Shown in pieces: positions 3,114 through 18,499 of a DNA stretch of 64,000 bases (its first letter is position 1; every line of letters starts with the position of its first letter). This stretch comes from Candidatus Poribacteria bacterium (GTDB lineage Bacteria; Poribacteria; WGA-4E; GCA-2687025), in contig OY762492.1 of the NCBI GenBank assembly GCA_963665845.2, positions 1,312,001 through 1,376,000 of the forward strand. The letters run 5' to 3'. Position numbers and translations under genes: made by a program. The notes below the pieces were generated by a model. The model was not told where the DNA came from, made no database searches, and saw only the letters and a list, made by a program, of their open reading frames with translations.

Positions 3114-3917
3114 TCAGCGCCGCCTGCCGTATTTGACATCCAGCTCCCGAAGACGCGCCAAAGCCTTTTCCGTCGGCTCCTTAAATTCGCCCGACTCATA
3201 AAAATCGCGCGTCTTTGCGTTCAGGTTGCCGTAGAAACGGCGCGTGGATTCGTTAGAACTGCCGCGCCAAAGCTCCGCCGGAATGATCGAATCTTCGCTT
3301 AAATACGGGCGGTCGGCGAACCCGTAATAAATCTGCGCCGTTTTGCGTTCGCGCTGCGTGGGGCGGGTCGTCGCCGTGTGGAGCGCGCCGATGTTGAAAA
3401 GGATGCCCGTTCCCGCTTCGCCGTACAGATCGCGCTTTCCGCCGCGCTCCAGCTGCGGATCGTTTTCAAGGATCGGCTCATCGACCGATTCGGGCGAGAT
3501 GGAAAAGCAGTGCGTCGTCTCGTCCACATCCGTAAAATACAGCATCAGCTGCAGAAAACCGACGCGCAGCGGATGCTCCATCCAGTGTCGCGGCCCGTCC
3601 CTGTGCCACGCCTGATGAAACTCGCCCTCGTAAGCCGCCATGTTGCGCAGGCAGATCTCCGAAAAGCATGGGTTTGGACCCATCAGCTGCCACAGCGCCT
3701 CCATCACAACGGGATGCCGCACAATGCGGTCGAACGCCGGCGAGGTGAATAAGGCGTCGCAGTTGACCGTCTGATGATGCCCGATCCGGTACCAGTGTCC
3801 GTTGGCGCGGTCGCGTTCAAACAGCGCCGTGAACTCCTCCACCTCAGCGTCGGTCAAGATTTTTCCCAGCGACGCGTATCCGTTCTGTTTAAAGAAATGC
3901 ATCTGGACGTCGGTCAT
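3114..3917 (-). CDS. Phytanoyl-CoA dioxygenase (PhyH) family Fe(II)/2-oxoglutarate oxygenase
   Basis: F..NGY..L..IL N-terminus, WHRD (HxD) and distal His (GALHTA). Start overlaps the stop of the upstream gene (ATGA). Confidence 0.85.
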   Translation of the reverse strand: MTDVQMHFFKQNGYASLGKILTDAEVEEFTALFERDRANGHWYRIGHHQTVNCDALFTSPAFDRIVRHPVVMEALWQLMGPNPCFSEICLRNMAAYEGEFHQAWHRDGPRHWMEHPLRVGFLQLMLYFTDVDETTHCFSISPESVDEPILENDPQLERGGKRDLYGEAGTGILFNIGALHTATTRPTQRERKTAQIYYGFADRPYLSEDSIIPAELWRGSSNESTRRFYGNLNAKTRDFYESGEFKEPTEKALARLRELDVKYGRRR

Positions 3918-4801
3918 GGGGTCTCCTCTTCGTTTGGGAGAATGCGCTGCCGGAGACGCGCCATCTCCCGTTCCACTTCCATATTTTGGACTCTCTGATC
4001 AAGCCCGCCGTTCAACTCCACGCCTTCGCCAGGGATGAATTGCGCTCTCATCTCAGCGATCGCCGCGTTCACTTCGTTATGGTCGTCCGCGACTTCATGC
4101 TGGATCATTGATGCCGCTTTTTTAAATCCTTCCTGCTGCTTCGCCGCTTTGATTTCCGCAATTTGTATCCGATAATCTTCCGCTTTCATCTCCATTTGGT
4201 TCAGAGCCTCTGAGCAGTCGTTGATGTTTTGGTCAATCAGCGCGCATAATTCTTCGGCGTTGGCTTTTCGGACGAGAAGGCGCCGCGCGTCGTCTTCCAG
4301 ATCGTCCCGCAAAAACTGCATGGCTGCCATTTCGTAATCCACGATGTTTTGCTGATGCTGACCCAATTCATCCCGCATCTCTTTCAATTTGGTTTGAAAT
4401 TGTTCGATCATGTTGACGAGGCGGATGCGAGCTTTGGATAATTGAAGGATCGCCTTATGGTATTTTTTCCTTCTGCTCACCCGCTGATTTTCTCGATGAA
4501 CAGACACGATCCGATAGACCGCCAATATGAAAATGAGAAGAAACAGCGCCGCGGCGGCATACGCTGCAACCTCGGCGAACCATGGGGAAGCAGGATCCGA
4601 CGCGATCGGAATCACGTATCTGAAGACCGTATAGACCTCTATGATGAACGAGAGCGCCGCCGCAAAGATCCACAACTCGAAGCGCGACTTATGGATGAAT
4701 TGCTTGATGCGCCGAAAACTCCTCTGAATTCGATACCGCAGCGAACCAGGCTTATTGGTCCAATCTCTCGGCAGTAAAGGCGGGAAATGCGGCAATTTCA
4801 T
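3914..4801 (-). CDS. Two-TM protein with PspA/IM30-like coiled-coil domain (Zorya-associated)
   Basis: Two hydrophobic helices at aa ~43-100, PspA-like segment AAMQFLRDDLEDDARRLLVRK, C-terminal VEREMARLRQRI, N-terminal MKLPHF. Confidence 0.6.
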   Translation of the reverse strand: MKLPHFPPLLPRDWTNKPGSLRYRIQRSFRRIKQFIHKSRFELWIFAAALSFIIEVYTVFRYVIPIASDPASPWFAEVAAYAAAALFLLIFILAVYRIVSVHRENQRVSRRKKYHKAILQLSKARIRLVNMIEQFQTKLKEMRDELGQHQQNIVDYEMAAMQFLRDDLEDDARRLLVRKANAEELCALIDQNINDCSEALNQMEMKAEDYRIQIAEIKAAKQQEGFKKAASMIQHEVADDHNEVNAAIAEMRAQFIPGEGVELNGGLDQRVQNMEVEREMARLRQRILPNEEETP

Positions 4802-6027
4802 TCGGATAAATCTTTCGCAAGCTCCATGATGTTGCGCATCTGATTGACGAGCGGACCGTAATCCTGCGTAAACTGTTTGGCGATTTGAGAAAGCTGTTCA
4901 TGCAGCTCATTCATCGATCTGGTCAACGCCGCTTCCGTCGCCTTTTCGAGAGAATGCAACGCATCCGCGCGTTCTCTGATCATCGCATCGATCGAATCGC
5001 CCGCCTTAACCGCGCCGGACTGGAGCGCCGCATTCACCTCCTCTTGGCTCTGTAGTATCAACTCGCGCTGATCCTGCATCCCTGTGTTGATCTCATTCGC
5101 CGCTTCTGTAAACGCCTCGATGGCGCTCATCATCAGAGGCGTGGAGGCGTTTAGGTTTTCGGTTCCTTTCTGAATTGCATGCTGCGCAGGTTCAAGCATA
5201 TCGGCGGCTAGATTAGCCGATTCCACAATCTGCGCAGTTCCTCTCTCCATCTGCGTGACGATCGAATCGAGTCCTGTCAGCGCATGCTCTAGCCGCTCTG
5301 CAATCGTTGAAAACCGTTCGCTTCTTTCAACGACGCTTGTCAGCGTCTGTTCGCAAGCGTCAAGCGCCATGACAGCGCGTTCGATCTGCGCAGTTTGCTC
5401 CTGAATCATCTGCTGATGCTGCCGCTGCCACTCCAGCAAATTGTTGGTTGATTCCGCCAATTTGCGAAAACTTTCTCCGCACTGCCTGCTGATTTCGGCG
5501 TTGAATTTATCGATTGTGCCGGCGAGCGCTTTTTCAATCGCTTTGGCGCATTTTTCAGACACCTCCGCTTCAAACGCTTTTATGTCGCTGCGCATCACTT
5601 GGACTTCGGCGGTGAGCGTCGATACGCCCTCTTTCACCGTTGCGACAATCTCGGCCATACCCGCGTTCCCTTCCGCGAGGGATTCGGAGATCGATTTGAT
5701 CATGACGACCGCTTCCGGCGGTTTTTCATAGGCTTTGGCATGGACAATCTTGAGCAAAACCGCCGTACCCATTCCAAACACGGAGGTGATGAAGGCGAAG
5801 CGCAGCCCCGACAGCAGACTTTGGACGCTGCCCACAAGATTCGCGTTCGGCGCGGACGGGCTGATATTTAAGCCGAAGAGACCGACGCAGATGCCGACGA
5901 ACGTTCCAAGCACGCCCAGCATCGTCGCCAGATTCGGGAGCCGCTCCTTCTGCTCCAACCTTCGATTTGCCAATAGGACGATCAGAACGATCCCTGCGCA
6001 CCAGGCGATAGAAAACGTTAGGTTCAT
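4798..6027 (-). CDS. zorA: ZorA-like (MotA/TolQ/ExbB family) protein, copy 3, 409 aa
   Basis: Three TM helices with LGVLGTFVGI and GLRFAFITSVFG, a helical tail and the conserved tip F..DYGPL. Confidence 0.8.
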   Translation of the reverse strand: MNLTFSIAWCAGIVLIVLLANRRLEQKERLPNLATMLGVLGTFVGICVGLFGLNISPSAPNANLVGSVQSLLSGLRFAFITSVFGMGTAVLLKIVHAKAYEKPPEAVVMIKSISESLAEGNAGMAEIVATVKEGVSTLTAEVQVMRSDIKAFEAEVSEKCAKAIEKALAGTIDKFNAEISRQCGESFRKLAESTNNLLEWQRQHQQMIQEQTAQIERAVMALDACEQTLTSVVERSERFSTIAERLEHALTGLDSIVTQMERGTAQIVESANLAADMLEPAQHAIQKGTENLNASTPLMMSAIEAFTEAANEINTGMQDQRELILQSQEEVNAALQSGAVKAGDSIDAMIRERADALHSLEKATEAALTRSMNELHEQLSQIAKQFTQDYGPLVNQMRNIMELAKDLSE

Positions 6028-6061
6028 GTGCGATCCGTTATTGAAGTTGTCAGATTAAATT

Positions 6062-6853
6062 TCATTGACTGCGCCATTTTTCCAGATATTTTTTGATCTT
6101 TTCGACGACGCCCTCAATCTCTTTCAGTTTCTTTTCCGAGTTGATTCGGACGCGAAACTCCACGCGGCGCGATTTAGACGGGTCTTCATGATTGCCGCTC
6201 TGGGCAATCAGTTTTCCGCCGCTGTCCAGAAGCTTGCTGGACGATAAACCGTTGGCGGTCAGTTTGCTCAATATCCATGCTTGATCGTTCTGAACCGCCT
6301 CTTTTTCGAGTCCGATCACATATTCTAGGACGGAGCGGGTTCGATCCTGCGACAGCTCCATGTTGTTGATGTAGGCGATTCTGGACGTCTCGGCGCCTTC
6401 CCACTCGCTGGATGTATGCCCCTCAATTCGAATCTCTTCAATGTGTCCGCGGAATTTTGAATCGGATACAACCGCAATATACCGCGGAAAAAATTCGTCC
6501 ATGATGCGGAGAAATTTCTCTGGCAGTCTGGAGCTTCCCCTTTCAAAAAACTCTTCAGGGTTAAAGCGTATGTACAGCGTTTCTCGGTCAAGGCTGGCGT
6601 TCCATTTTTCCAGGTCCGCCTCAAATTCACTGTTTAGAGCCTTGTATAACTCATCCTGTAAATCGCGGTGAGATTCTGAAATATCCTTAACATCTTCAAC
6701 CAGCCCCTGAGCGTCCTTCGTTTTCTGCACCGCGTCCACCATGAAACTGATGGCGACAAAAAGAAAAATCACCATCAGCCCCGCCATCATGTCCGATATT
6801 GAAATCCATTGACCCTCGCGCTGATTGTCGGAGGCGCCTAAAAAGGTGCGCAT
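6062..6853 (-). CDS. zorB: ZorB-like (MotB/OmpA family) protein, copy 4
   Basis: GQWISISDMMAGLMVIFLF TM with conserved Asp; OmpA-like domain with IRIEGHTS, LSQDRTRSV, SRRVEFR. Confidence 0.88.
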   Translation of the reverse strand: MRTFLGASDNQREGQWISISDMMAGLMVIFLFVAISFMVDAVQKTKDAQGLVEDVKDISESHRDLQDELYKALNSEFEADLEKWNASLDRETLYIRFNPEEFFERGSSRLPEKFLRIMDEFFPRYIAVVSDSKFRGHIEEIRIEGHTSSEWEGAETSRIAYINNMELSQDRTRSVLEYVIGLEKEAVQNDQAWILSKLTANGLSSSKLLDSGGKLIAQSGNHEDPSKSRRVEFRVRINSEKKLKEIEGVVEKIKKYLEKWRSQ

Positions 6854-6909
6854 CGTTCAATCCCTAGTTTGCGTTAAAATGCCTGCTTGAAAATGCGTCT
6901 GCGCGTCGG

Positions 6910-7551
6910 TCATACGGCGTCCTCCCCGCTGGGTTGAAGGCGTTCTCGGAGACGCGTCATCTCCTGTTCCACCAGCTCATCCGGTTCGTTCGCCGGCGCC
7001 TTGTTCAGCTCGCGCTCCAGCCCCTTCTTCTCCGCTTTGATGTCCATCTCATGCGCGATGCCGCTGCGCCTGTTCTGCGTCTGCGCCGCCTCATGTTTCA
7101 GTATCCACATCTCATGCTGCCGTTTTAACCGTTCAATTTCAAACATATCTTCGTCGTTGCTCATCTTCATCGCCGCCGTCAACGTTTCAATGGAGCGTAT
7201 GTCGTCTTCGATTCGTTCGCATGCCTCCAGCGCCGTCAGTTTGAGTCGGAGATGTTTCTTCGCGTTCTGCTCTTCGTCTAGCAATAGGGCGTTTTCCGCC
7301 GCTTTTTGCGCCTGTTCCGCCTTCCGTTCGTTTTTTTTCAATTCCTCGCGCCAATGCGCTACCGTCTTGTTCGCCTCGCGGATAAATCTTCTCCGCTCCC
7401 CGATCTTTTTGACGCCGTTGACGATCGCCCCTAAGAATTTCTTGTCTGTTTTGGAGGAACGGCGCGGCGCCTGTTTCGGCCAAGGGGATGTCGCCATCCG
7501 TTTGCGCAAACCGGCAAAGTGTCGGTTTTGTCCAAAATCCGGCAGCTTCAT
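6910..7551 (-). CDS. Soluble PspA/IM30-like coiled-coil protein with ZorE-like N-terminal peptide
   Basis: N-terminus MKLPDFGQNRHFAGLRKRM resembles ZorE MKLPNFREHARLNLLRRAM; AAENALLLDEEQNAKKHLRLK and C-terminal VEQEMTRLRERL are PspA-like; ATGA-coupled to zorA. Confidence 0.6.
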   Translation of the reverse strand: MKLPDFGQNRHFAGLRKRMATSPWPKQAPRRSSKTDKKFLGAIVNGVKKIGERRRFIREANKTVAHWREELKKNERKAEQAQKAAENALLLDEEQNAKKHLRLKLTALEACERIEDDIRSIETLTAAMKMSNDEDMFEIERLKRQHEMWILKHEAAQTQNRRSGIAHEMDIKAEKKGLERELNKAPANEPDELVEQEMTRLRERLQPSGEDAV

Positions 7552-9053
7552 TCTAAATCCTTCGCCATCTGAACCACCTCGCGCAGCCTTTCGGTCAGCG
7601 GTCCGTAATCGTCCACAAACTTTTCCGACAGCTCCGCCAACTGACGACCCAGCGTGATCAGCGACTGCTTCAGCGCCGCCTCAAGACTTTTCTCCAGATT
7701 GTTCAACGCCCGCGCCCGCTCCATGAACAGCCGATCCACGCTCTCGCCGATCTTTTCAGCCGCCGCGGCGACCGCTTTATTCATGCCGGCGATGTTTTCA
7801 TCCACCTTCGGCAGCTCGCGGTTCGCCGAGGAGGCGGCGTCCGCAAACGCTTTCCATTCGTCCGTCAAACGGGAGGCGCCGTCGGTCAACGCTTTCAGCG
7901 CCGGCGCTAGTTCCCGCGCCGGCTCCTCCACCGCCGCCAGCGTTTCCTGCCGCGCGGACATATGCTGAATAACCGCCTCTAGACGCTCCGCGGTCTCGAC
8001 AAACAGACCGCTTTGCGCGACCAGTTTGCCCATCGCCCCTTGAATCTCCGAAAGCGCCTGCGAACCCGCCTCCAGCGCCTCTTGCGAGCGGCGGCTCCGT
8101 TCGTCTAGGTTTTTGCTGATTTCGTCCGCCGCCGTTTGAAACGCGCCTGACGCCTGCTTTAAACCGCTCTCTAGCTGTGGAATCGTTTGACCGGCTGTTT
8201 TGGCTGAATCGGCGACGGACCGAAACTCGCCGCCCAGATTGCCCGCCCCTTCCCGCAGCGCTTCCAGCGCCGACGCCAGCTGCGCCGCCGGCTCAACGAG
8301 GCGCGCGATGCGCTCCTCCCGCGTCTCCAGCTCCTCCAATGCGCCGTCCAGACGATCCGCGATGGACGCGAACGCGCCGCTGCGCTCCACAAACGCGCTC
8401 ATCGCCTCCTCCGACGCCTTCAGCGCCGCGATGGAGGCGTCCAGCTGCTTCGACTGCTCCTCCACCTGTTTTGCATGCGCCGTCTGCCATAGATGAAGAC
8501 GGCCGGCAGTGTCGTTCAGCTGACGAAAACTCTCGGCGCATTGGGCGTTGATCTCGGCGTTGAAACCCTCGACAAGGCTCTCCATCGCGGCGGTCAGCGC
8601 CGCCGCCGATTTATCGGCAACCTCCGCCTCAAAGGTTTTGAAATCGCCGCGCAGCTTCTCCGACTGGTCAATGAGGCGCGCGTTGCCGTCGTTGAGCGCC
8701 TGAACAAGCGCGTCCAGCCGCTCCGTCAACGGCTCCAGCGGATCGGACGCATCCTCGTCCGTTTGCTTCATTTTAAGAAAGACGGCGGTACCCATGCCGA
8801 ATACAGAGGTGATGAAGGCGAAGCGGAGACCGTTTAAAAGGCTGCTGGCGCCTTTCTCCAGCTGGGCGATGCCGCCCGTTTCGGACAGCTGAATCCCAAG
8901 CAGGCTCCAACAGACGCCGACGAAGGTGCCGAGAACGCCCAGCATCGTCGCCAGATGCGGCAGCCGCTCTTTTTCCACATTCGGTTTGCGGCTTAGCCAA
9001 AAGACCGCCGCGACGATGCCGACGCACCAGAGAGCGGGAAAAAGATAGTTCAT
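7548..9053 (-). CDS. zorA: ZorA-like protein, copy 2, 501 aa
   Basis: LATMLGVLGTFVGV and GLRFAFITSVFG TM motifs; long helical tail ending KFVDDYGPLTERLREVVQMAKDLE. Confidence 0.82.
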   Translation of the reverse strand: MNYLFPALWCVGIVAAVFWLSRKPNVEKERLPHLATMLGVLGTFVGVCWSLLGIQLSETGGIAQLEKGASSLLNGLRFAFITSVFGMGTAVFLKMKQTDEDASDPLEPLTERLDALVQALNDGNARLIDQSEKLRGDFKTFEAEVADKSAAALTAAMESLVEGFNAEINAQCAESFRQLNDTAGRLHLWQTAHAKQVEEQSKQLDASIAALKASEEAMSAFVERSGAFASIADRLDGALEELETREERIARLVEPAAQLASALEALREGAGNLGGEFRSVADSAKTAGQTIPQLESGLKQASGAFQTAADEISKNLDERSRRSQEALEAGSQALSEIQGAMGKLVAQSGLFVETAERLEAVIQHMSARQETLAAVEEPARELAPALKALTDGASRLTDEWKAFADAASSANRELPKVDENIAGMNKAVAAAAEKIGESVDRLFMERARALNNLEKSLEAALKQSLITLGRQLAELSEKFVDDYGPLTERLREVVQMAKDLE

Positions 9054-9062
9054 TCGCGCGTC

Positions 9063-9884
9063 TCAATCGGCGTCAAAGTTTCCCTGCGCCTCCTTGAATT
9101 CGTCATACAGCTCTTCGATCATCTCGATGCGTTTTTCGGCGCTGATGCGGACGCGGAACTCAACGCGCCGCGACCGCCGCTTGTCTTCGCCCTTGCCGCT
9201 TATTTTAATCAGATTTCCGTTCCTGTCCAACCGCTTGCTGAACGACAAGCCGTTCGCGGTCATGCGGTCTTGGATCCATTCCAGGTTGTCTCTCACGACG
9301 CGCTTTGGAATCTGCAGAACATATTGGAGCGTTGAACGGGTGCGGTCTTGGGACAGCTGCATGTTGAAAAAATACGCCTCATCGGGCGAGGCGCTTTCGT
9401 TCCATTCGCTGGAGGTATGCCCCTCAATGCGTATCTCTTCGATGTCGCCCCGATACTTCTCCTGGGCGAGAATATGCACATAGCGCGGGAAAAAGTCGTC
9501 CAGTATCGCGCGAAAACCAGCCGGCAGACGCGAGCTGCCCTGCCGAAAAAGCATGCCGGGGTCCTGAAACCGAATCGAAAGCGTGTCGGGATCGATCTCG
9601 GCGTTCCACTTTTGGAGATCGTTTGTCCGCTCAAATTCTTGGCGCAGGTCTTGCAGCAGCTCCTTCTGAAGATTGCGGTAGGTTTCCGCCGCCTCCTGGA
9701 CGCTGTCGCGCTGGCGTTCGGCTGTTTTCCGCTGCCTGTCCGCCTCCGCTTTTTTCTGCGCCGCGTCGATCATAAAACTGATTGCAATGAACAGAAAAAC
9801 CGCCATCAGCACGGTCATCATATCGGAGATGGAGAGCCACTGTCCCTCGTTTTGATCGGGGTTTCGGCGGAAGAGATTGCGCAT
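9063..9884 (-). CDS. zorB: ZorB-like protein, copy 3
   Basis: GQWLSISDMMTVLMAVFLF, IRIEGHTS, LSQDRTRS, SRRVEFR. Start is ATG 9884 or TTG 9890. Confidence 0.88.
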   Translation of the reverse strand: MRNLFRRNPDQNEGQWLSISDMMTVLMAVFLFIAISFMIDAAQKKAEADRQRKTAERQRDSVQEAAETYRNLQKELLQDLRQEFERTNDLQKWNAEIDPDTLSIRFQDPGMLFRQGSSRLPAGFRAILDDFFPRYVHILAQEKYRGDIEEIRIEGHTSSEWNESASPDEAYFFNMQLSQDRTRSTLQYVLQIPKRVVRDNLEWIQDRMTANGLSFSKRLDRNGNLIKISGKGEDKRRSRRVEFRVRISAEKRIEMIEELYDEFKEAQGNFDAD

Positions 9885-9899
9885 CGTCAAGACATCCCC

Positions 9900-10718
9900 C
9901 TAGCGTCCGGCGGATACTGGATTCCTCGCCATGTGACCATGTCCAGGCTGCTTTCGGTGGCACCAATGGCACAAAGCCTTCAGGTTGGTGCGGTCGTTGT
10001 TCGCCTTATTTCCGTCGATGTGGTGAACATGCAGACGTTGTCTCTGTACTCGGAAATTAATTAGGCATTGTTCACATACCCACCCGACAGACTCCCGGTA
10101 TTGGAGCGATATTTCATGCCAATCTTCTGGATATACGTTGGCAGGGGCTGTTTCGTTATTGTGCAGCGGGAGCCATGTGGTCGGCGTTTCCCGATACATC
10201 TCAAAAAACTCATCCAGCCTGAAATTACGATAGATTTCGTCCCAATCCCGTCCGTATTGGCGATAGCCTTTATACCGCAGCTTAGCGAGGCAGTTTTTAC
10301 AGACATTCAAGCGGACATGTTCGGTTTGGACGCCGGCGTACCCGTTGTTAACATTGATCTGGAAGATGCCGTCTGTCCGATTTGAGACGACATATCGATG
10401 CCCTCTACCGCCCTTGATCATGCCACTGAGCGTTCCGCAGTGCGCGATGTGAAATTTCGGTCTTGATCCTAAGGAGCTGACATCGCGGATATAGATCAGC
10501 ACCCTCTCTCCATTGATCGCGAGAGTGCCGTCAGATCCTATGACGAGATCATCGGGGTTCACCTCCAGGCCTTCGCGAGACGCGAGCGTTTTACGAAGCT
10601 CGTTCGGGTCCAGGGATTTCCATCCGGCCCCGCCTCGTTCCTGCTCCACATATTCGGCGCCCATCGCGCGGCGCAGGAGATTCAGACGCGCATGTTCACG
10701 GAAATTGGGCAGCTTCAT
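9900..10718 (-). CDS. zorE: HNH endonuclease, Zorya type II effector ZorE-like
   Basis: PKFHIAHCGTL, RYVV..R.DG.F and VCKNCL motifs; C-terminal CEQC...LHVHHIDGNKANN...NLKALCHWCH HNH; lies downstream of zorAB. Confidence 0.85.
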   Translation of the reverse strand: MKLPNFREHARLNLLRRAMGAEYVEQERGGAGWKSLDPNELRKTLASREGLEVNPDDLVIGSDGTLAINGERVLIYIRDVSSLGSRPKFHIAHCGTLSGMIKGGRGHRYVVSNRTDGIFQINVNNGYAGVQTEHVRLNVCKNCLAKLRYKGYRQYGRDWDEIYRNFRLDEFFEMYRETPTTWLPLHNNETAPANVYPEDWHEISLQYRESVGWVCEQCLINFRVQRQRLHVHHIDGNKANNDRTNLKALCHWCHRKQPGHGHMARNPVSAGR

Positions 10719-11425
10719 TATGCAATTCCTCCCTCTTCGACAATGCGGGTGATGCGCTTCTCGGCGTTGATGGCGATTCGGAATTCAAGGCGGCGCGACC
10801 GCATTTTGTCCTCGTTTCCGTTTTTCAGCAAGCGCGGTTTGCTTGATGAAAGCCCGTTGGCGGTCAGTCGGCTTAGCATCCACTGCCGCTCTCTGGGTAT
10901 CGGCGTACGCGAGATGCCCAGGACAAATTCCAACGCGGCGCGGGCGCGGTTTTGGGTCAGCTCCATGTTGCGGATATACGCCTCTTCAGAGGTTGCAGTT
11001 TTGCTCCAGTCGCTGGATGTGTGCGCTTCAATGCGTATTTCTTTGATGGCGTCCCGATACTTTTCGCGGGCGAGTATCCGTATGTAACGCGGGAAGAAAT
11101 CGTCCAGGATCGCGCGCAGCGGCGTTTGAAGCTTTGAGGCTTCTGCTTGAAAGAGCATGTCGGGCGTTTGAAAACGCACCGAAAGGGCGACGGCGTCCAG
11201 CTCGGCTTGCCACTCGTCCAGATCGTTTCTGAATTCATCGTAGAGATCTTTGTACAGACCTGCCTGAAGACGTTGATGGCCAACGGCAATCGCCTTGAGT
11301 CCATCTCGAACGCTCTCCGCTCTCTTTCTTTGGGTACGCTCACGGATCAGCGAGCCGATGAGGACGATAAGGATTGCGACAGCAAAAACCCCCATGCTTT
11401 CAACCGGCATATTCTCAAAAGGCAT
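10718..11425 (-). CDS. Degenerate ZorB paralog (copy 2) lacking the W.S.SD ion-binding motif
   Basis: OmpA-like domain close to 11501-12253 (DDFFPRYIRILA, LTANGLSSSK, SRRLEFR), but the TM is GVFAVAILIVLIGSLI with no Asp, and EGHT is replaced by EAHT. Confidence 0.8.
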   Translation of the reverse strand: MPFENMPVESMGVFAVAILIVLIGSLIRERTQRKRAESVRDGLKAIAVGHQRLQAGLYKDLYDEFRNDLDEWQAELDAVALSVRFQTPDMLFQAEASKLQTPLRAILDDFFPRYIRILAREKYRDAIKEIRIEAHTSSDWSKTATSEEAYIRNMELTQNRARAALEFVLGISRTPIPRERQWMLSRLTANGLSSSKPRLLKNGNEDKMRSRRLEFRIAINAEKRITRIVEEGGIA

Positions 11426-11500: not shown

Positions 11501-12253
11501 TCATTCAACGATTCCTCCCTCTTGGATAATGCGGACGATCTGTTCCTCGGCGTTCGTACGGACGCGAAACTCAACGCGCCGAGACTGTATTTTATCTTCT
11601 TCGTCGCCATTTTTGAAGCGGAGCTTGCTGGACGAAAGCCCGTTGGCGGTCAAATGCTTCTTGACCCAATCCCGCTCTTTCGGCATCGGAGATTTCTGGA
11701 TATTTAAGACGTGCTTTAACACGGCGCGCGTCCGATCCTGGGACAGTTTCATGTTTAGAATATATGCCTTATCCTGCGAAACGGACACATTCCACTCGCT
11801 GGACGTATGCCCTTCAATGCGTATCTCTTCGATGTCGTCCCGATATTTTTCCTGATCGTCCAGGGCGAGAATTCGAATATAGCGCGGGAAGAAATCGTCC
11901 AGGATGCCTTCAAACCGCTCCTGAAGATCTGCTTTTCCTATCTCAAAAAGAACGTCCGGCGCACGAAAACGCACCGAGAGCGTCGGCTTGTCGATGGTGG
12001 CGTCCCACTCGTCTAGATTGTCTTTGAACTCATCAAGCAGATCGTTGTACAGATCGTTCTGAAGACGCTGGTAGGTGACGGCGATCTCTTTGATGCTGTC
12101 TCTTTCCACCTCGATTTTGTTCTTTTTCTCCTGCGCGTCCAGCATGAAACTGAGCGCGACAAACAGGAAAATCACCATGAGACCGGCCATCATGTCGGAG
12201 ATGGAGATCCATTGTCCCTCGTCCTGCTGTTCGGGAAGCTGCTGGTCATTCAT
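11501..12253 (-). CDS. zorB: ZorB (MotB/OmpA family), copy 1
   Basis: GQWISISDMMAGLMVIFLF, IRIEGHTSSEW, LSQDRTRAV, SRRVEFRV; directly follows zorA. Confidence 0.9.
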   Translation of the reverse strand: MNDQQLPEQQDEGQWISISDMMAGLMVIFLFVALSFMLDAQEKKNKIEVERDSIKEIAVTYQRLQNDLYNDLLDEFKDNLDEWDATIDKPTLSVRFRAPDVLFEIGKADLQERFEGILDDFFPRYIRILALDDQEKYRDDIEEIRIEGHTSSEWNVSVSQDKAYILNMKLSQDRTRAVLKHVLNIQKSPMPKERDWVKKHLTANGLSSSKLRFKNGDEEDKIQSRRVEFRVRTNAEEQIVRIIQEGGIVE

Positions 12254-12287: not shown

Positions 12288-14741
12288 TCAAGATCGGCTC
12301 CGAGAAGTCGCCGACGATCTTGGCGGGGAGGGGTCCTCTAAACCTTCCGCTATCCGCACAACTCTGCGCAGTTGCTCCGTAAGCGGCGTGTAATCTTGAA
12401 CAAACCTTGTCGAAAGCGACACCAGCTGACTCGCAAGTGAATTGAGCGCTTTGGTAAGCTCTTCGCCGAGCGCATTGTCCAGCTCCTCCGTCTGCTTCGC
12501 CATGTTTTCGCCTGCCGTTCTGACGAATTCCGCTATATGGTTGCTCATCTGCGTTGCGGATTCTGTGACGCGCCGGTTCATGGCATTGTGAGCTTGCTCA
12601 ATCCGTTGGCTTGTGTTGTTGACGCTGAGCAGAGCTTCGGCGGCGGCGCTTGAGATGGATCCGCTAGCGTTCTGGACGCTTTCGCTCATCTCGGCTTGAA
12701 CTCTCTGAAATTCCGTTATCAGCTCCATCTGGCTTTTCATGTTTTCAAGCGCATCCGCGGCGGCGCTGACAAATCCATTGACAGCGGCTTTGATCTGTTC
12801 ATTGACAGTCTCTTGGGTTTGCGCGATTTGATACCGCTGGTTCGCCATACTTGCGAACGCGCTGTCCGCGGCGTTTTTGAATCCGTCCGCGGTCGCTTCG
12901 ATTTGTGCGTTCACGTTCGTTTGCGTCTGTTCGATCTGCGTTCGCTGGTTTTCCATGCTCGTCAGCGCCGTTTGAGTCGATTTCTCAAATCCAGCCGCTG
13001 TTTGCTCAATGCGGCTTTGCTGCGTTTTCAGACCCTCAACCGACGCTTCAGCGGCGTCCTTGAATCCATCCGCCGCTTCTTGTATCTGCGCATTCACACC
13101 CTGCTGAAACGACTGCATCTGATTTCTCTGCTGACTCATGCTGTCAAGCGACGCCGCAACCGATTGTTGAAAATCTGCCGCCGTTTGCTTTACTCCTGCA
13201 TTGACGGCATCTTGATTTTCTTTAATTCGTTCGCGCTGCTTGTCCATACTCTCAACCGACGCATCAACCGATTTTTTGAATTCGTCTGCGGCATTCGTCA
13301 CCCCCGAGTTGACGATCTCTTGATTCTTTTCAATCAGTTCGCGCTGACCATCCATGCTCGCCAATGACGCATCAACCGAATTCTTGAAGCCAGCCGCTGT
13401 CTCCTGTATCTGCGCGCCAACCTGCTTCTGGTTTTCCGCCATCAACGTCTGCTGTTCCTCCAGGCTCGTTTTCAGTTGGGCGTTCACCTGTTCCTGATTC
13501 TTTTCCAGCTGACCAGCTTGATTCTTGATACTTTCCAACGCGGCGCCGGCGGATTCCGTAAACCCGTTCGCCGTTTCCTGTATCTGCGCGCCGACCTGCT
13601 TCTGGTTTTCAGCCATCAATGTCTGCTGTTCCTCCAGGCTGGTTTTCAGTTGGGCGTTCACCTGCGCCTGATTCTTTTCCAGCTGGTCAGCTTGATTCTC
13701 GATACTTTTCATTGCGGCGCCGGCGGATTCCGTAAATCCATTCGCCGTTGTCGTCAGCCCGCTTGTGATCTGCTCAATGTTCTGCTGTATCGATGGGAAG
13801 GCGCTTTCCGCCCGTTCGCCGAGATTCGCCAGCGCCGCAAGATGCGCGTTCATCGCCTCGTTGCGCGCGCTTAGATCGCCCAGCGCCTCGTCTAGCCGGT
13901 CGGCGACGCCCGCAAACGTCTCGCTCCGCTCAACGACGACTCCCATCGACTCCTTACAGCTCTCCAGCGCCTCCATCGACTGCCGCAGCTGCCCGACCAT
14001 CGCCTCCACCTGCTCCTTGTAGTTTTCCTGCCAAGTGAGCAGCTGCCCGACCGCTTCATTGAGCTGCTTGAAGTTGTCGCCGAACTGCTCATTGATTTTG
14101 GCGTTGAAATCGCGCATCACCTCCTCCAGCGCCTCAATGAGCGCCTTGGAGTTGTTCTCCGCCATCGATTCGGCAAACTCCCGAAATTCCTTGATGAGAT
14201 CGTCCTGCTTGTCGGAAAAGGTTGTGCGCATCTTCTGCATCTGCGTCAACAGGGTTGTGTCGCCTTCACCGGTCAGGGCGCGCTCCACCGCCCCGATCTT
14301 GTTTAAAAGCGTCGACTCGCCCTCTCCCGTGACCGCATTCGCGACCGCCGCCGTGTTTTCGTTGATTTCCTGAAAGCCGTTCTTCAGTAGATCGGCAAGC
14401 GTGTCAAGCGTGGCGCCTTCCGTCGCCTGTCCCTCTGTCTTGCCCCGCCCCGAGATCTTGCCCAGAAAGAATCCTCTCAGTACGACTGCAGTAAGAATTC
14501 CAGCTACGGAGGTGATGAACGCAGTACTGAGACCCTCCAGCAGACCAGGTATGCTGCCGTTGATGTCCGCTACGTCGAATCCCCGTAGCCCGTACAGGAT
14601 TCCTCCGAAGGTTCCGAGAATGCCTAAGACCGTCGCAAAGTTGGGAATGGACGCTCTGTGAGGATTCCCCCGCAGCCGAATCGCAAGGATGATTGAAACA
14701 ACGATGATGAACGCGCTATACGCCAGCGCTAAGTTCAGCAT
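12288..14741 (-). CDS. zorA: ZorA with very long repetitive helical tail, copy 1, 817 aa
   Basis: Three TMs (LGILGTFGGI, GLSTAFITSVAG), DFNAKINEQFGDNFKQLN..V..L..WQ motif and a ~700 aa Gln/Ala-rich tail. Confidence 0.9.
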   Translation of the reverse strand: MLNLALAYSAFIIVVSIILAIRLRGNPHRASIPNFATVLGILGTFGGILYGLRGFDVADINGSIPGLLEGLSTAFITSVAGILTAVVLRGFFLGKISGRGKTEGQATEGATLDTLADLLKNGFQEINENTAAVANAVTGEGESTLLNKIGAVERALTGEGDTTLLTQMQKMRTTFSDKQDDLIKEFREFAESMAENNSKALIEALEEVMRDFNAKINEQFGDNFKQLNEAVGQLLTWQENYKEQVEAMVGQLRQSMEALESCKESMGVVVERSETFAGVADRLDEALGDLSARNEAMNAHLAALANLGERAESAFPSIQQNIEQITSGLTTTANGFTESAGAAMKSIENQADQLEKNQAQVNAQLKTSLEEQQTLMAENQKQVGAQIQETANGFTESAGAALESIKNQAGQLEKNQEQVNAQLKTSLEEQQTLMAENQKQVGAQIQETAAGFKNSVDASLASMDGQRELIEKNQEIVNSGVTNAADEFKKSVDASVESMDKQRERIKENQDAVNAGVKQTAADFQQSVAASLDSMSQQRNQMQSFQQGVNAQIQEAADGFKDAAEASVEGLKTQQSRIEQTAAGFEKSTQTALTSMENQRTQIEQTQTNVNAQIEATADGFKNAADSAFASMANQRYQIAQTQETVNEQIKAAVNGFVSAAADALENMKSQMELITEFQRVQAEMSESVQNASGSISSAAAEALLSVNNTSQRIEQAHNAMNRRVTESATQMSNHIAEFVRTAGENMAKQTEELDNALGEELTKALNSLASQLVSLSTRFVQDYTPLTEQLRRVVRIAEGLEDPSPPRSSATSRSRS
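13403..13749. repeat. 174-bp (58 aa) near-perfect tandem repeat inside zorA
   Basis: CCTGTATCTGCGCGCC at 13403 and 13577; peptide TANGFTESAGAA...NAQLKTSLEEQQTLMAENQKQVGAQIQE occurs twice. Confidence 0.95.
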
Positions 14742-14857: not shown

Positions 14858-17800
14858 TTACGAGGCGGGGGAGCGCGGCGCCTTCAAAACGACCCCCCAT
14901 TCGCCCAAAGCCCAGACCGCCGCGCCGTCTTCCGACACGGCTAAAAAGCGCAGGGCGTATTGGACAGGGGAGCGCAGTTTCTGCCATGTCTCTCCGCCGT
15001 CCGTTGTATGGAGAATGACGCCGTCGTTTCCGACCGCATACGCCTCCTTCTCCGACAGCGCCTCAACCCAGTTCAAGTCGCTTGAGAGACCGCTCTTCTG
15101 CTTTGTCCATGCGGCGCCGATGTCTTCCGTCCGCAGAATGATTCCGTATTGCCCGACCGCCCATCCGACGCGGGGCGACGCGGCGCAAACGCTGTTCAAG
15201 GAGTATGCCGTGCCGCTCTCCTGGTCTCGCCAGCGCGTTCCGCCGGAGGAGCTGTGCAGCATGATGCCGCGCGAACCCGCGATCCATCCGTAGCCGAACC
15301 GGTCGAGGTGAACGGAGCGCAGGTCGTATCCTTCGCCTTTCATCTGCCGTTCCCATTCGGGTCCGCCGTCTGGGTTATGGACGATGACGCCGCCCTGTCC
15401 GACCGCCCAGGTTTCGCCGAAGCCGGACATGAACCCGCCGTTGAGTCGGACGCGCCCCTGCAGCGGCTCCGATTCCAGCGGCGTCCATCCGAAGCCGTCT
15501 TCGGTGAAGAGATGCGACCCGGCGGCGTCCAACGCCCATCCGAAACCGCGCCCTTTGCTTGCCCAGTGCATGGCGATGATGCTGGGTCCGCCGCTTTTCT
15601 GCTCTGTCCATGTTTGTCCGCCGTCTGCCGTGTGGATAATCAGCCCGTCTTCGCCTGCCGCCCATCCTTCGTCTGTCGACAGAAACCGACCCGCGCCGAG
15701 AGCCTGCGGCGAGCTTTCAACGAGCGTATCCCATGACGCGCCGCCGTCCGTCGTTTTATAGAGCCGCCCGCCTTCTGCCGCCCAGCCTTGCGAGGGCGAC
15801 AGAAAATAGGTCGACGCAAAACGCTCCGTCCCGGCGGGCGACCAGCTCTGCCCTCCGTTCAGCGTGAAATAGGCGCGCCCCTGACGCTGCGCCGCCCATG
15901 CGGTCTGTTCATCCAAGACGCGCGCCTTCTGCATGCCGAGCAGGCGGCGCCTTCCTCCCGACTCCCAGGTCTCTCCGTCCCTTGTGATGAGCGTCTCTCC
16001 GCTGGATGAGATCGTCATTCCGTTCGTTGGGGTAAAGAAGAGTATTGCCGCCGGCGTCTGCGCAGGTTTTGCCTGTATCGCCCAGGTTTCGCCGCCGTCG
16101 CGCGTGTGGAGAATGAAGCCGCCTTCGCCTCTCTGCGGGGCGACCGCCCATCCATGCGTCGGCGAGACGAAAAAGAGCGTTCGGACCGCCGCGTTCGTCG
16201 CCGCGGTGTCCTTATGGAGCCATGTTTGTCCGCCGTCGTTGGTGCGCAGGATCGTCCCATGCCCTGCGCTGATCCAGGCATGCCGCGCGTCTAAAACGAA
16301 CAGGTCGGTGAAACGCTGGCGCGCCGAGGAGTTTTGATATTCCCATGTTTCGCCGCCGTCTTTGGTGGCGAGTATCGTTCCTTCGCCGCCGATCGCCCAG
16401 CCATGCATATCGTCCGCGAAGGCGACGCGGGTCAAGCGGTTCTGGACGCCCGATTCGCGCGGCTCCCAGGTCTTTCCGCCGTCGTTCGTCAAGGCGATCA
16501 TGCCGTTCAAGCCGACGGCGGCGCCGCGCGTCTCGTTGGCAAAGGCGACGTCCAGAAACTGGGTCGGCCATGCGCTGACGCGGACAACCTCCCAGCCCGC
16601 CTCCAGTTCGGGTACGCGCGGCGGCTCTTCGACGGTTGGGCGCGTCTGCGCGATCACATCGTCCAGCGTCCCCTGGTCAGGTTTGATGTCGGGCGTGTAG
16701 CGGATGACGATTCCGCCCTGTCCGACCGCGACGACGCCTTGGGAGGAGACGGCAAAATCGAGCAGATCGTTCTCGGAGCCGCTTTCGTTTTGAATCCATA
16801 TTTCGCCGCCGTTGACGGTGGTCAGAAGCATGCCGTCGTCCCCGATCGCCATCCCCCAATACTCGTTCAGGAAGAAGACGCGGTTTAGGTTCGTGAGCGT
16901 TCCGCTGGCTTGAAACGCCCATGTGTCGCCGCCGTCTTTAGTGTGCAGTATTTCGCCTTCCTGCCCGACGATCCATCCGACATTTTGGTTCACAAAATGC
17001 AAGCCGTAGAGTTCGTTGAAGGTGCCGCTGTCCTGCCGTTCCCAGGTCAGCCCGCCGTCCTGTGTGCGGTAGACGATGCCCGGCCATCCGACGATCCAGC
17101 CATGGTTTTGGTCAAGAAAGAAAACAGCGGTGAGCGTTTGAAACTCGAACGGCTTCTGGTTCGCCCAGTTGCGCCCGCCGTCCTTGGTGTAGATGATGGT
17201 GCCGAGATCGCCGACCGCCCAGCCGCGGTTCGCGTCTAAAAAGAAAACGCCGTTCAGTTGGAACCCCATGCCGCCTGTTTGGTAACGCCATGTTTTTCCG
17301 CCGTCTACGGTGTTCATGACGATGCCGCGTTCGCCGACCGCCCAGCCGCGCAGTTCGTCGATGAAGGCGACGCTTTTGAGCGTGTCGACCTGCCCCGTTT
17401 TCTGTTCCACCCATGTTTTTCCGCCGTCTTCGGAAGTGAGCAGCGTCCCGCCCGTTCCGACGGCGATGGCGCGTTCGTCCGACACAAATTCAACCGATTC
17501 AAGATGGTGCGCCATGACGGCTCCGCTGACCGTGTTCCAGGTTTTCCCGCCGTCTTCAGAGTGGAGAATGACGCCGTACCATCCGCATGCCCATGCTTCG
17601 TTTTTGGAGACGAATTGAATGTCGGTCAGGTTTGTTTGATAGCCGCTGTTGCGGAGCGTCCATGTGTCGCCGCCGTCGTCGGTTTGGGAGATATGTCCGC
17701 CGTTTGCGACGGCGGCGCCGTTTCGGTCGTCCCAGAAGTCGATGCCGTTGACCGAGAAGCGCACATGGTCGGTGAACGGGATTCGGCTGTCTTGGCGTTC

Positions 17801-18499
17801 CCAGCTGCCGCCGCCGTTGACTGTTTTGAAGATGGAGCCGTCCGTTCCGCAGATCCAGCCGACCCGCTCGTTGTAGAAATCGGCGCGGTGGTAGTTGTTG
17901 AGAAGCCGATCTTCCATGCCTTCGTGTCGGGTTGTGAGCGGCGCCCAGGACTGTCCCCCGTCCAGCGTTTTCAGCAGAACCTCCATGTCGCCCATGGCGT
18001 ATCCGATCTGTTTGGTGACGAATTCGGCGTCGTTGAGCGGGTATTCGGCGCCGCTGGGGACGCGCCCCCATTCTTCGCCTGCGGTTTCGCTGGCGTAGAT
18101 GTCCCATGTTTCGCCGACCGCATAGACCGTGTTTCGGTCGGTGTAATGGGCGCCGCGCAGGATCGCGCGCGTTGGAAAGTTTGCCCGTTTCCATTGCTTT
18201 CCGCCGTCGGTTGTGTAGACGGCGGTTCCGAGTTCGCCGACCGCGAATCCGCGCAGCTGGTCGTAAAAATGGATGTCGTACAGTTCTCGGTTGACGCCGC
18301 TGTCCTGCCGTTCCCAGGTCTGTCCGCCGTCGGAGGTGTGGGCGATCATGCCGCCGGAGCCGACGAACCATCCGCGTTGGGCGTCCACGAAGGAGAGGGC
18401 GCGGAAGTCGGTTTCCCAGTCCGCTTTTCGAACAACCTCGTGGCGCGCGCATCCGAGTATGCATACGGCGGCGGCAATCAAGGCGCAGTGTCTCAACAT
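14858..18499 (-). CDS. YCF48/BNR-repeat multi-beta-propeller lipoprotein, 1213 aa
   Basis: Lipobox-like ILGC and more than 20 repeats of GW.VG..G.I..T.DGG.TW. Confidence 0.9.
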   Translation of the reverse strand: MLRHCALIAAAVCILGCARHEVVRKADWETDFRALSFVDAQRGWFVGSGGMIAHTSDGGQTWERQDSGVNRELYDIHFYDQLRGFAVGELGTAVYTTDGGKQWKRANFPTRAILRGAHYTDRNTVYAVGETWDIYASETAGEEWGRVPSGAEYPLNDAEFVTKQIGYAMGDMEVLLKTLDGGQSWAPLTTRHEGMEDRLLNNYHRADFYNERVGWICGTDGSIFKTVNGGGSWERQDSRIPFTDHVRFSVNGIDFWDDRNGAAVANGGHISQTDDGGDTWTLRNSGYQTNLTDIQFVSKNEAWACGWYGVILHSEDGGKTWNTVSGAVMAHHLESVEFVSDERAIAVGTGGTLLTSEDGGKTWVEQKTGQVDTLKSVAFIDELRGWAVGERGIVMNTVDGGKTWRYQTGGMGFQLNGVFFLDANRGWAVGDLGTIIYTKDGGRNWANQKPFEFQTLTAVFFLDQNHGWIVGWPGIVYRTQDGGLTWERQDSGTFNELYGLHFVNQNVGWIVGQEGEILHTKDGGDTWAFQASGTLTNLNRVFFLNEYWGMAIGDDGMLLTTVNGGEIWIQNESGSENDLLDFAVSSQGVVAVGQGGIVIRYTPDIKPDQGTLDDVIAQTRPTVEEPPRVPELEAGWEVVRVSAWPTQFLDVAFANETRGAAVGLNGMIALTNDGGKTWEPRESGVQNRLTRVAFADDMHGWAIGGEGTILATKDGGETWEYQNSSARQRFTDLFVLDARHAWISAGHGTILRTNDGGQTWLHKDTAATNAAVRTLFFVSPTHGWAVAPQRGEGGFILHTRDGGETWAIQAKPAQTPAAILFFTPTNGMTISSSGETLITRDGETWESGGRRRLLGMQKARVLDEQTAWAAQRQGRAYFTLNGGQSWSPAGTERFASTYFLSPSQGWAAEGGRLYKTTDGGASWDTLVESSPQALGAGRFLSTDEGWAAGEDGLIIHTADGGQTWTEQKSGGPSIIAMHWASKGRGFGWALDAAGSHLFTEDGFGWTPLESEPLQGRVRLNGGFMSGFGETWAVGQGGVIVHNPDGGPEWERQMKGEGYDLRSVHLDRFGYGWIAGSRGIMLHSSSGGTRWRDQESGTAYSLNSVCAASPRVGWAVGQYGIILRTEDIGAAWTKQKSGLSSDLNWVEALSEKEAYAVGNDGVILHTTDGGETWQKLRSPVQYALRFLAVSEDGAAVWALGEWGVVLKAPRSPAS

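Follow-up and report, generated by a model that had tools for sequence, protein, structure and literature searches.

A short N-terminal tag of ZorE recurs on PspA-like and other unrelated proteins and may dock on the ZorA tail of type II Zorya

We analysed a stretch of 64,000 nucleotides (nt) from contig OY762492.1 of a Candidatus Poribacteria bacterium (hereafter the window) with respect to a short peptide that opens the Zorya nuclease ZorE and the products of two neighbouring genes. Our analysis showed a single type II Zorya operon of ten genes on the minus strand, in the order zorA1, zorB1, zorB′, zorE, zorB2, zorA2, psp1, zorB3, zorA3 and psp2 (Table 1). The operon holds three ZorA and four ZorB genes, whose best PADLOC matches are all type II profiles, although the three ZorA proteins, best matched by the ZorA2 profile, fall below the NCBIfam equivalog cut-off. 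The SISDMM motif and an OmpA domain are present in zorB1, zorB2, and zorB3, while the helix with the Asp is missing from zorB′, which is 67.5% identical to zorB1 in DNA over 604 nt. The genome has four strong ZorB2 matches, all within this operon, and the nearest named relative of the operon's ZorE is labelled Candidatus Poribacteria.

Module 1 is similar to Zorya type II of E. coli ATCC 8739 and S. kujiense (ZorAB, PDB 8VVI; PMC11890865), being zorA-zorB-zorE with an HNH ZorE. Unlike that system, the operon has three motor sets and an extra ZorB without Asp. HNH ZorE is the soluble partner in module 1 only; modules 2 and 3 have the order zorB-zorA-PspA-like gene instead of zorA-zorB-zorE, and neither of their partners matches ZorE in PADLOC. 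E. coli ZorE starts with the variant MKLSIDISEL and its ZorA tip is different, whereas the ZorE described here is of a short type that starts with MKLPxF. A genome of the same genus (G001, locus L021) has zorA1-zorB1-zorE-zorB2-zorA2-psp1, with neither zorB′ nor a third module.

Table 1. Genes of the Zorya operon and the tag and tip elements within them, in window coordinates.
Feature	Coordinates	Strand	Basis
zorA1 (type II ZorA, 817 aa, long repeat-expanded tail)	12288..14741	-	PADLOC ZorA2 E=3e-102; internal DNA repeats
ZorA1 tail tip (L..EL.K.L.SL..QL..LS..F..DY.PLT..LR.VV), candidate docking site	12336..12527	-	80.9 bits, tip profile without window rows; alignment
zorB1 (type II ZorB, conserved Asp in SISDMM)	11501..12253	-	PADLOC ZorB2 E=1e-92
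zorB′ (extra ZorB copy, N-terminal membrane helix without Asp)	10718..11425	-	PADLOC match from profile position 44
zorE (short-type ZorE, HNH nuclease domain, 272 aa)	9900..10718	-	PADLOC ZorE2 E=4e-80 from residue 1; Pfam HNH; structure model
ZorE N-terminal tag, residues 1-20	10659..10718	-	conserved columns in 40 homologues; model helix 10-18
zorB2 (type II ZorB)	9063..9884	-	PADLOC ZorB2 E=2e-84
zorA2 (type II ZorA, 501 aa; canonical tip 7551-7742)	7548..9053	-	PADLOC ZorA2 E=3e-58; tip 76.3 bits
psp1 (tag, linker, amphipathic helix ~37-48, PspA/IM30-like coiled-coil body; 213 aa)	6910..7551	-	hhalign, Atlas, PDB matches
psp1 N-terminal tag, residues 1-19, in register with ZorE tag	7495..7551	-	pN/pS vs G001 orthologue
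zorB3 (type II ZorB)	6062..6853	-	PADLOC ZorB2 E=2e-83
zorA3 (type II ZorA, 409 aa; diverged tip 4804-4995)	4798..6027	-	PADLOC ZorA2 E=9e-46; tip 40.1 bits
psp2 (psp1 paralogue, 295 aa, residual tag MKLPHF 4784-4801)	3914..4801	-	alignment; hydropathy; weak PspA matches

The genes at 9900-10718, 6910-7551 and 3914-4801 start with MKLPNFREHARLNLLRRAM, MKLPDFGQNRHFAGLRKRM and MKLPHF, respectively, exactly as quoted in the original prediction. Only four exact occurrences of MKLP.F were found in the six frames of the 3.98-Mb genome; three are these gene starts and the fourth lies in a 9-codon frame. In short-type ZorE, MKLPxF opens a motif of 19-20 residues, MKLP[DN]F-x5-[LF]-x2-L[RK]-x2-M, which we call the tag. 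Among 40 ZorE homologues, which came from a whole-protein search and were not selected by the motif, the N-terminal consensus is MKLPNF-x5-LN-x-LR-x2-MG, and conservation reaches 39/40 at L3, 34/40 at P4, 36/40 at F6, 38/40 at L/F12, 39/40 at M19 and 36/40 at G20. The structure model of ZorE has a helix at residues 10-18, with predicted local distance difference test (pLDDT) values of 69-76 over residues 1-20 and of 46-56 over residues 21-60, followed by a confident core. This predicted layout is consistent with a tethered element. None of the solved structures matches the tag profile.

Two profiles were used for scoring, profile A from 39 outside ZorE N-termini only and profile B from 79 loci without window or PspA rows. 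With profile B, the scores were 39.4 bits for ZorE, 18.0 for psp1, and 1.0 for psp2. With profile A, the psp1 tag reached 11 bits and rank 3 of 20,702 open reading frames (ORFs), which is E=0.37 genome-wide, and psp2 reached 5 bits; the psp1 tag is significant solely via its exact N-terminal position within this operon (single-sequence p 1.8e-5). The motif is matched in register over 19 residues by psp1 and over residues 1-6 only by psp2. The tag had been proposed for both PspA-like proteins; this stands for psp1, while psp2 probably has no working tag any more.

Neither psp1 nor psp2 reached the curated PF04012 cut-off of Pfam. The closest match of psp1 was an untagged PspA paralogue elsewhere in the same genome (hhalign 96.5%, E=7e-10), which itself scores 33.6 bits against a cut-off of 33.9. 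psp1 also matched PspA clusters of the Atlas (0.92; PF04012 is present on 21-45% of the cluster members) and, weakly, PspA/Vipp1 chains in the PDB (E ~0.007). Like PspA/Vipp1 (IM30; PF04012; PDB 4WHE, 8QBW, 6ZVR), psp1 has a coiled-coil body with a C-terminal VE.EM.RLR motif. Unlike them, it has the ZorE tag in front of the amphipathic helix and lies in a Zorya operon, and psp2 has an integral membrane insertion, hydrophobic over about residues 43-100, with one or two membrane helices by hydropathy. These comparisons suggest that both are remote PspA/IM30 relatives, and the HNH and PspA-like bodies are unrelated as had been claimed. The two PspA-like proteins are, however, paralogues of each other (28% identity over 155 aa). 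Because of this, and because psp2 keeps only six residues of the tag, the window holds one graft followed by a duplication and not two grafts. The donor-like paralogue has no tag. The amphipathic helix of psp1 has a moment of 0.57, and the first helix of the untagged paralogue one of 0.59. Since psp1 retains this helix, the tag was placed ahead of the usual membrane-binding helix and was not substituted for it.

Comparison of psp1 with its G001 orthologue gave proportions of non-synonymous (pN) and synonymous (pS) differences of 0.05 and 0.32 for codons 2-19, and of 0.21 and 0.46 for codons 41-180. Non-synonymous changes were found at 2/42 sites of the tag and 69/332 of the body (Fisher p=0.011), so that the tag is the most constrained region of psp1 tested and is under purifying selection. 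It is also kept in three homologues, P0043-P0045. Among 176 genomes of the phylum, the tagged PspA form was found in this genus only, and no relatives of psp1 were found in viral contigs or in metagenome contigs.

The original prediction proposed a profile of the ZorE N-terminus and a listing of the domains fused to it, and our survey supplied both. A motif search by DNA pattern found 77 loci in genome contigs and at least 120 in metagenomes, with at least 199 matches, at least 173 of them distinct. Genomic context was counted for the 126 distinct matches with at least 800 nt of upstream DNA, and 47 with less were excluded. Among the matches listed, 118 of the 126 lie in Zorya II operons, 117 directly after a type II zorB and one, a PspA-like gene, after zorA. 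Of the 117, 54 are full ZorE and 42 are ZorE that is HNH-less or broken; 9 are interrupted by the contig end and 6 are unclassified. Three more are proline-rich one-helix proteins, and another three are proteins of 85-95 aa in which the ZorE core is absent. A fourth proline-rich tagged case (L302/L377) came from a search selected by zorB. The other 8 lie outside Zorya operons: 5 are HD phosphohydrolases, 2 are small proteins that have no zorAB in the vicinity (L196 and L203), and 1 is a chance match. The gene upstream of the tagged gene is thus not constant, being zorB, zorA or a toprim gene. A search of 1.84 billion proteins with the tag profile gave 256 matches. Of the best 150, 98 had a ZorE-type body, 26 were of at most 70 aa, and 26 were longer without a ZorE body; the latter include 5 HD proteins and 3 repeat artefacts, besides many that look truncated and a few distinct small proteins without context.

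These results show that several unrelated proteins have naturally acquired the first ~20 residues of ZorE, and that the tag, present on at least four unrelated bodies, is a real and portable module under selection. The exchangeable effector module of the original prediction is borne out in this respect and is wider than had been seen: ZorE, HNH-less ZorE, PspA-like, proline-rich, 85-95-aa and HD bodies all carry it.

Several of the tagged loci deserve separate mention. In L063, L073, L084, and L377, the effector slot of Zorya II is occupied by a tagged proline/glycine-rich protein without nuclease, and three of these loci are labelled Alphaproteobacteria/Rickettsiales; the proteins of L063, L073, and L084 have one predicted membrane helix each. 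In L065, L078, and L121, the protein in this slot is tagged, of low complexity and 85-95 aa long, and its C-terminal motif is conserved. L050, L054, L075 and about 40 others form a large lineage of HNH-less ZorE, 154-199 aa long and directly after zorB, some of them among housekeeping genes. Small or low-complexity proteins with the tag at the start or inside were found away from zorAB or without context (P0133, P0099, P0170, P0088, P0103, P0092, L196:3853-4134 (+) and L203:1708 (+)). L051, 30 codons long and lying opposite a larger gene, was dismissed as a match by chance, and P0057, P0061, and P0179 as repeat artefacts.

The tagged HD proteins sit in a plasmid-type toprim-HD-UvrD cassette (PHROG 318; YfbR-like) and share body and synteny with the other plasmid HD phosphohydrolases of this cassette. 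Unlike these, a Beijerinckiaceae subset has a 30-aa tag of the ZorE type; the Methylosinus copy starts directly at the HD domain, while the Methylocapsa copy has the 30-aa tag at the same position. Cassettes with a tagged HD gene were seen in L068, L074, L091, L100, L189, and L259, none with zorAB nearby, and the syntenic L260 is untagged. In L196, an untagged HD gene of the same cassette type is accompanied by a free 93-aa tagged protein ending in a CxxC-CxxC motif. For two HD tags, the nearest sequence is the ZorE tag in a Zorya II locus of Beijerinckiaceae (14-15 of 24 free positions). HD proteins that are only 52-69% identical still keep the tag. It is present in 1/201 genomes of the family that includes the tagged-HD genus. 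Among 30 listed plasmid matches out of 90 records, the alignment begins at residue 1 in 3, and these three plasmids are absent from the 13 plasmids with a ZorB match. No strong ZorB2 match was found in the 3 tagged-HD genomes tested, nor at E<=1e-30 in 58 genomes of the tagged-HD genus, where the positive control was also undetected and the negative is hence weak. The tagged HD or small proteins might, as a hypothesis only, serve as anti-Zorya decoys. An anti-Zorya type I gene is mentioned in 10.64898/2026.06.18.732992. A phage origin of the small tagged proteins was considered and is unsupported (PHROG match 0/10, no phage record, no usable loci). In viral contigs, the strict motif gave no match and the relaxed motif one, itself a zorABE locus.

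The tip of the ZorA tail is strongly conserved in tag-bearing loci and forms the conserved end of an otherwise variable tail. With a tip profile without window or PspA rows, ZorA1, ZorA2, and ZorA3 scored 80.9, 76.3, and 40.1 bits. A conserved tip had been claimed for all three ZorA tails, which is right for the first two; that of ZorA3 has diverged, and in module 3 tag and tip diverged together. In a set of 55 loci selected by zorB (53 scorable), the tag is carried by 16/20 loci with this tip type vs 2/33 with other tips, and the four tagless loci of this tip type have recognisable tag variants. In each of the E. coli-like, Bacteroidota, and ZorC-type groups of loci, a distinct tip goes together with a distinct N-terminal peptide. 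A mirror-tree analysis of 69 dereplicated loci gave a partial r=0.58 between the tag window and the tip given ZorB, while the coil upstream of the tip gave r=0.03 with the tag given the body. A complex prediction with four copies of the ZorA1 tip (not the native pentamer) and ZorE residues 1-32, run without controls, gave a score of 0.20 (mark 0.32) and counts neither way.

Previous studies have indicated that ZorAB sends ZorE to the membrane on infection and that the cytoplasmic rod of ZorA is needed (PMC11890865). In type I, co-localisation of ZorD is lost upon a large deletion of the tail tip, and low-confidence N-terminal helices of ZorC are essential (PMC11946911). Our case is like this type I recruitment of ZorC/ZorD in its supposed dependence on the tail tip and unlike it in effectors and tip sequence; no transferable tag is described in the accessible part of that paper. 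The tail tip is not resolved in the type II structure, and within their accessible parts neither PMC11946911 nor PMC11890865 names the contact surface between ZorA and effector. Recruitment via the ZorA tail had been taken as established, which is overstated for type II. No description of the tag or of a PspA-type Zorya partner was found in titles and abstracts of the Zorya literature; supplements, possibly with predicted ZorA-ZorE models, were outside this search.

We slightly favour the reading that the tag is a recruitment signal binding the ZorA tail tip. Payloads are likely directed to the Zorya membrane motor by the first ~20 residues of ZorE, which would serve as an address label. In short-type ZorE, a self-contained module of the first 19-30 residues would bind the cytoplasmic tail of type II ZorA, most probably at its conserved tip. 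Phage entry activates ZorAB according to the literature on types I and II, and the tail may then capture tag-bearing proteins. In this genus, the module would have been grafted before a PspA/ESCRT-III-like body that came from a housekeeping paralogue, and a duplicated ZorAB would have become its partner. Module 1 would thus deliver a nickase and module 2 a PspA-like membrane remodeller, the second motor recruiting, in place of a nuclease, a predicted membrane-remodelling polymer that might act against phage by sealing or disrupting the membrane at the entry site. Module 3 appears to be a species-specific tandem duplicate in which PspA acquired a membrane anchor and both the tag and the ZorA tip diverged, likely because the need for docking was relaxed and the anchor replaced it.

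Several observations weigh against docking at the tip. Kin share labels, operons are inherited whole, and some of the zorB-selected loci duplicate training rows of the profile; shared ancestry accounts for much of the tag-tip co-occurrence. The mirror-tree signal does not set the tag apart, because conserved windows of the ZorE core give about equal or higher values with the tip (0.70, 0.63, 0.58, and 0.57), and the tag-tip value given both ZorB and the ZorE body (r=0.37) equals that of one ZorB window (ZorB windows 0.02-0.37). The psp1 tag is degenerate (11-18 bits) and has no G20, and five tagged HD proteins have no zorAB nearby. According to two further studies, E. coli ZorE binds bilayers of phosphatidylethanolamine and cardiolipin without ZorAB (10.1101/2024.01.14.575553), and it can also synergise with Druantia III in the absence of ZorAB (10.64898/2026.05.12.724681); the ZorE mutants given in the latter begin at H90 and leave the N-terminus untouched. 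What the original prediction said of the tip thus keeps the co-occurrence of tag and tip types on its side, and the docking itself is a matter of inference.

The bilayer binding of E. coli ZorE also speaks for the main rival, in which the motif would be an amphipathic, lipid-binding anchor keeping proteins at the inner membrane near ZorAB, e.g. at cardiolipin-rich poles, without sequence-specific docking. Residues 9-19 are moderately amphipathic (mean moment 0.39), and such an anchor would also serve plasmid HD proteins in hosts without zorAB. We consider it improbable: the net charge of residues 1-20 ranges from -2 to +4 and is at most 1 in 65/82 sequences, L3, P4, F6, and M19 are near-invariant, the tag also occurs on proteins that already have a membrane helix, and psp1 retains a stronger amphipathic helix behind it. 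The motif could instead make another protein contact, such as self-oligomerisation, auto-inhibition of ZorE, or binding to membrane-proximal ZorA, the ZorB N-terminus or a host factor. The co-variation does not single out the tip and tagged proteins occur on mobile elements without zorAB, which fits such a contact; against it, E. coli ZorE is monomeric in solution (PMC11890865), auto-inhibition fails to explain why the tag is retained on non-nuclease bodies, the tip is the conserved end of an otherwise variable tail, and the coil just upstream of the tip shows no co-variation with the tag. This reading we regard as rather improbable.

Improbable, finally, is that the motif is a leftover of the zorE 5′ end (start, ribosome-binding context or translational coupling) with no role at the protein level. 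It is true that the ATGA overlap constrains M-K at psp1 and psp2, that many database matches are truncated or frameshifted ZorE calls, and that psp2 keeps just six residues; for psp2 alone this origin is plausible. For psp1 it is largely refuted: synonymous sites between the psp1 and ZorE tags are near-saturated (pS 0.8-1.1) yet the conserved residues are kept, and pN between the psp1 orthologues is low. A remnant of the coupling junction, named in the original prediction as what would refute it, is not what the data support for the module as a whole: ZorE homologues conserve the peptide, selection maintains it on the PspA body, the genes upstream of it differ, and it is present on at least four unrelated bodies, including the divergent HD proteins.

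If the tag indeed binds the ZorA tail, non-nuclease outputs would be added to Zorya, including the first PspA/ESCRT-III-like partner. In the laboratory, it could be used as a tag for phage-triggered recruitment to the membrane, and on plasmids it would be a candidate counter-defence by mimicry. A short natural peptide that moves between unrelated payloads is also a defined fragment with which the passing of the signal from the ZorAB motor to soluble effectors can be tested directly. A broader version, which we regard as doubtful, is that Zorya II is plug-and-play, a tag of 20-30 residues docking any payload on the rotating ZorA tail so that the place of the nuclease has been taken by an ESCRT-III-like remodeller, a proline-rich protein with a membrane anchor or a bare peptide. 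The tag would then have been acquired by plasmids and other mobile elements, as HD fusions or small free proteins, for decoys that block or hijack the motor.

Some other features of the locus were noted. zorB′ (10718-11425, -), without the ion-conducting Asp, could be a regulatory or non-conducting subunit. Internal tandem repeats in zorA1 (13137-13749; 91% over 181 nt) lengthen the ZorA1 tail, and the G001 orthologue of zorA1 is two ORFs in its assembly. The operon is flanked upstream by a gene for a 1213-aa Ycf48/BNR-repeat protein (14858-18499, -) and downstream by a PhyH dioxygenase gene (3114-3917, -), with which the psp2 stop overlaps; in G001, psp1 is likewise followed by PhyH.

An assembly artefact was rejected as the source of the repeated modules, the paralogues being only 24-54% identical, a two-module version being present in G001, and the stretch being contiguous in two public read assemblies from which it may derive. 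No RNA data set was among those listed with the operon. A contig from another study joins position 3976 to 6981 at 85% likeness, which is a weak hint of some relative without module 3.

In the phylum, ZorB2-like genes were found in 60/176 genomes. In many of these loci (among L329-L376), a type II-like ZorB is accompanied by ZorC/ZorD-like genes and the ZorA tip differs; an N-terminus with the conserved sequence 'NSAKKLLQF.F' is also present there and may be a second class of tag. In G005, a Zorya II-like locus with a divergent 394-aa ZorE-like protein lies within a flagellin gene array (L032:7164-11343).

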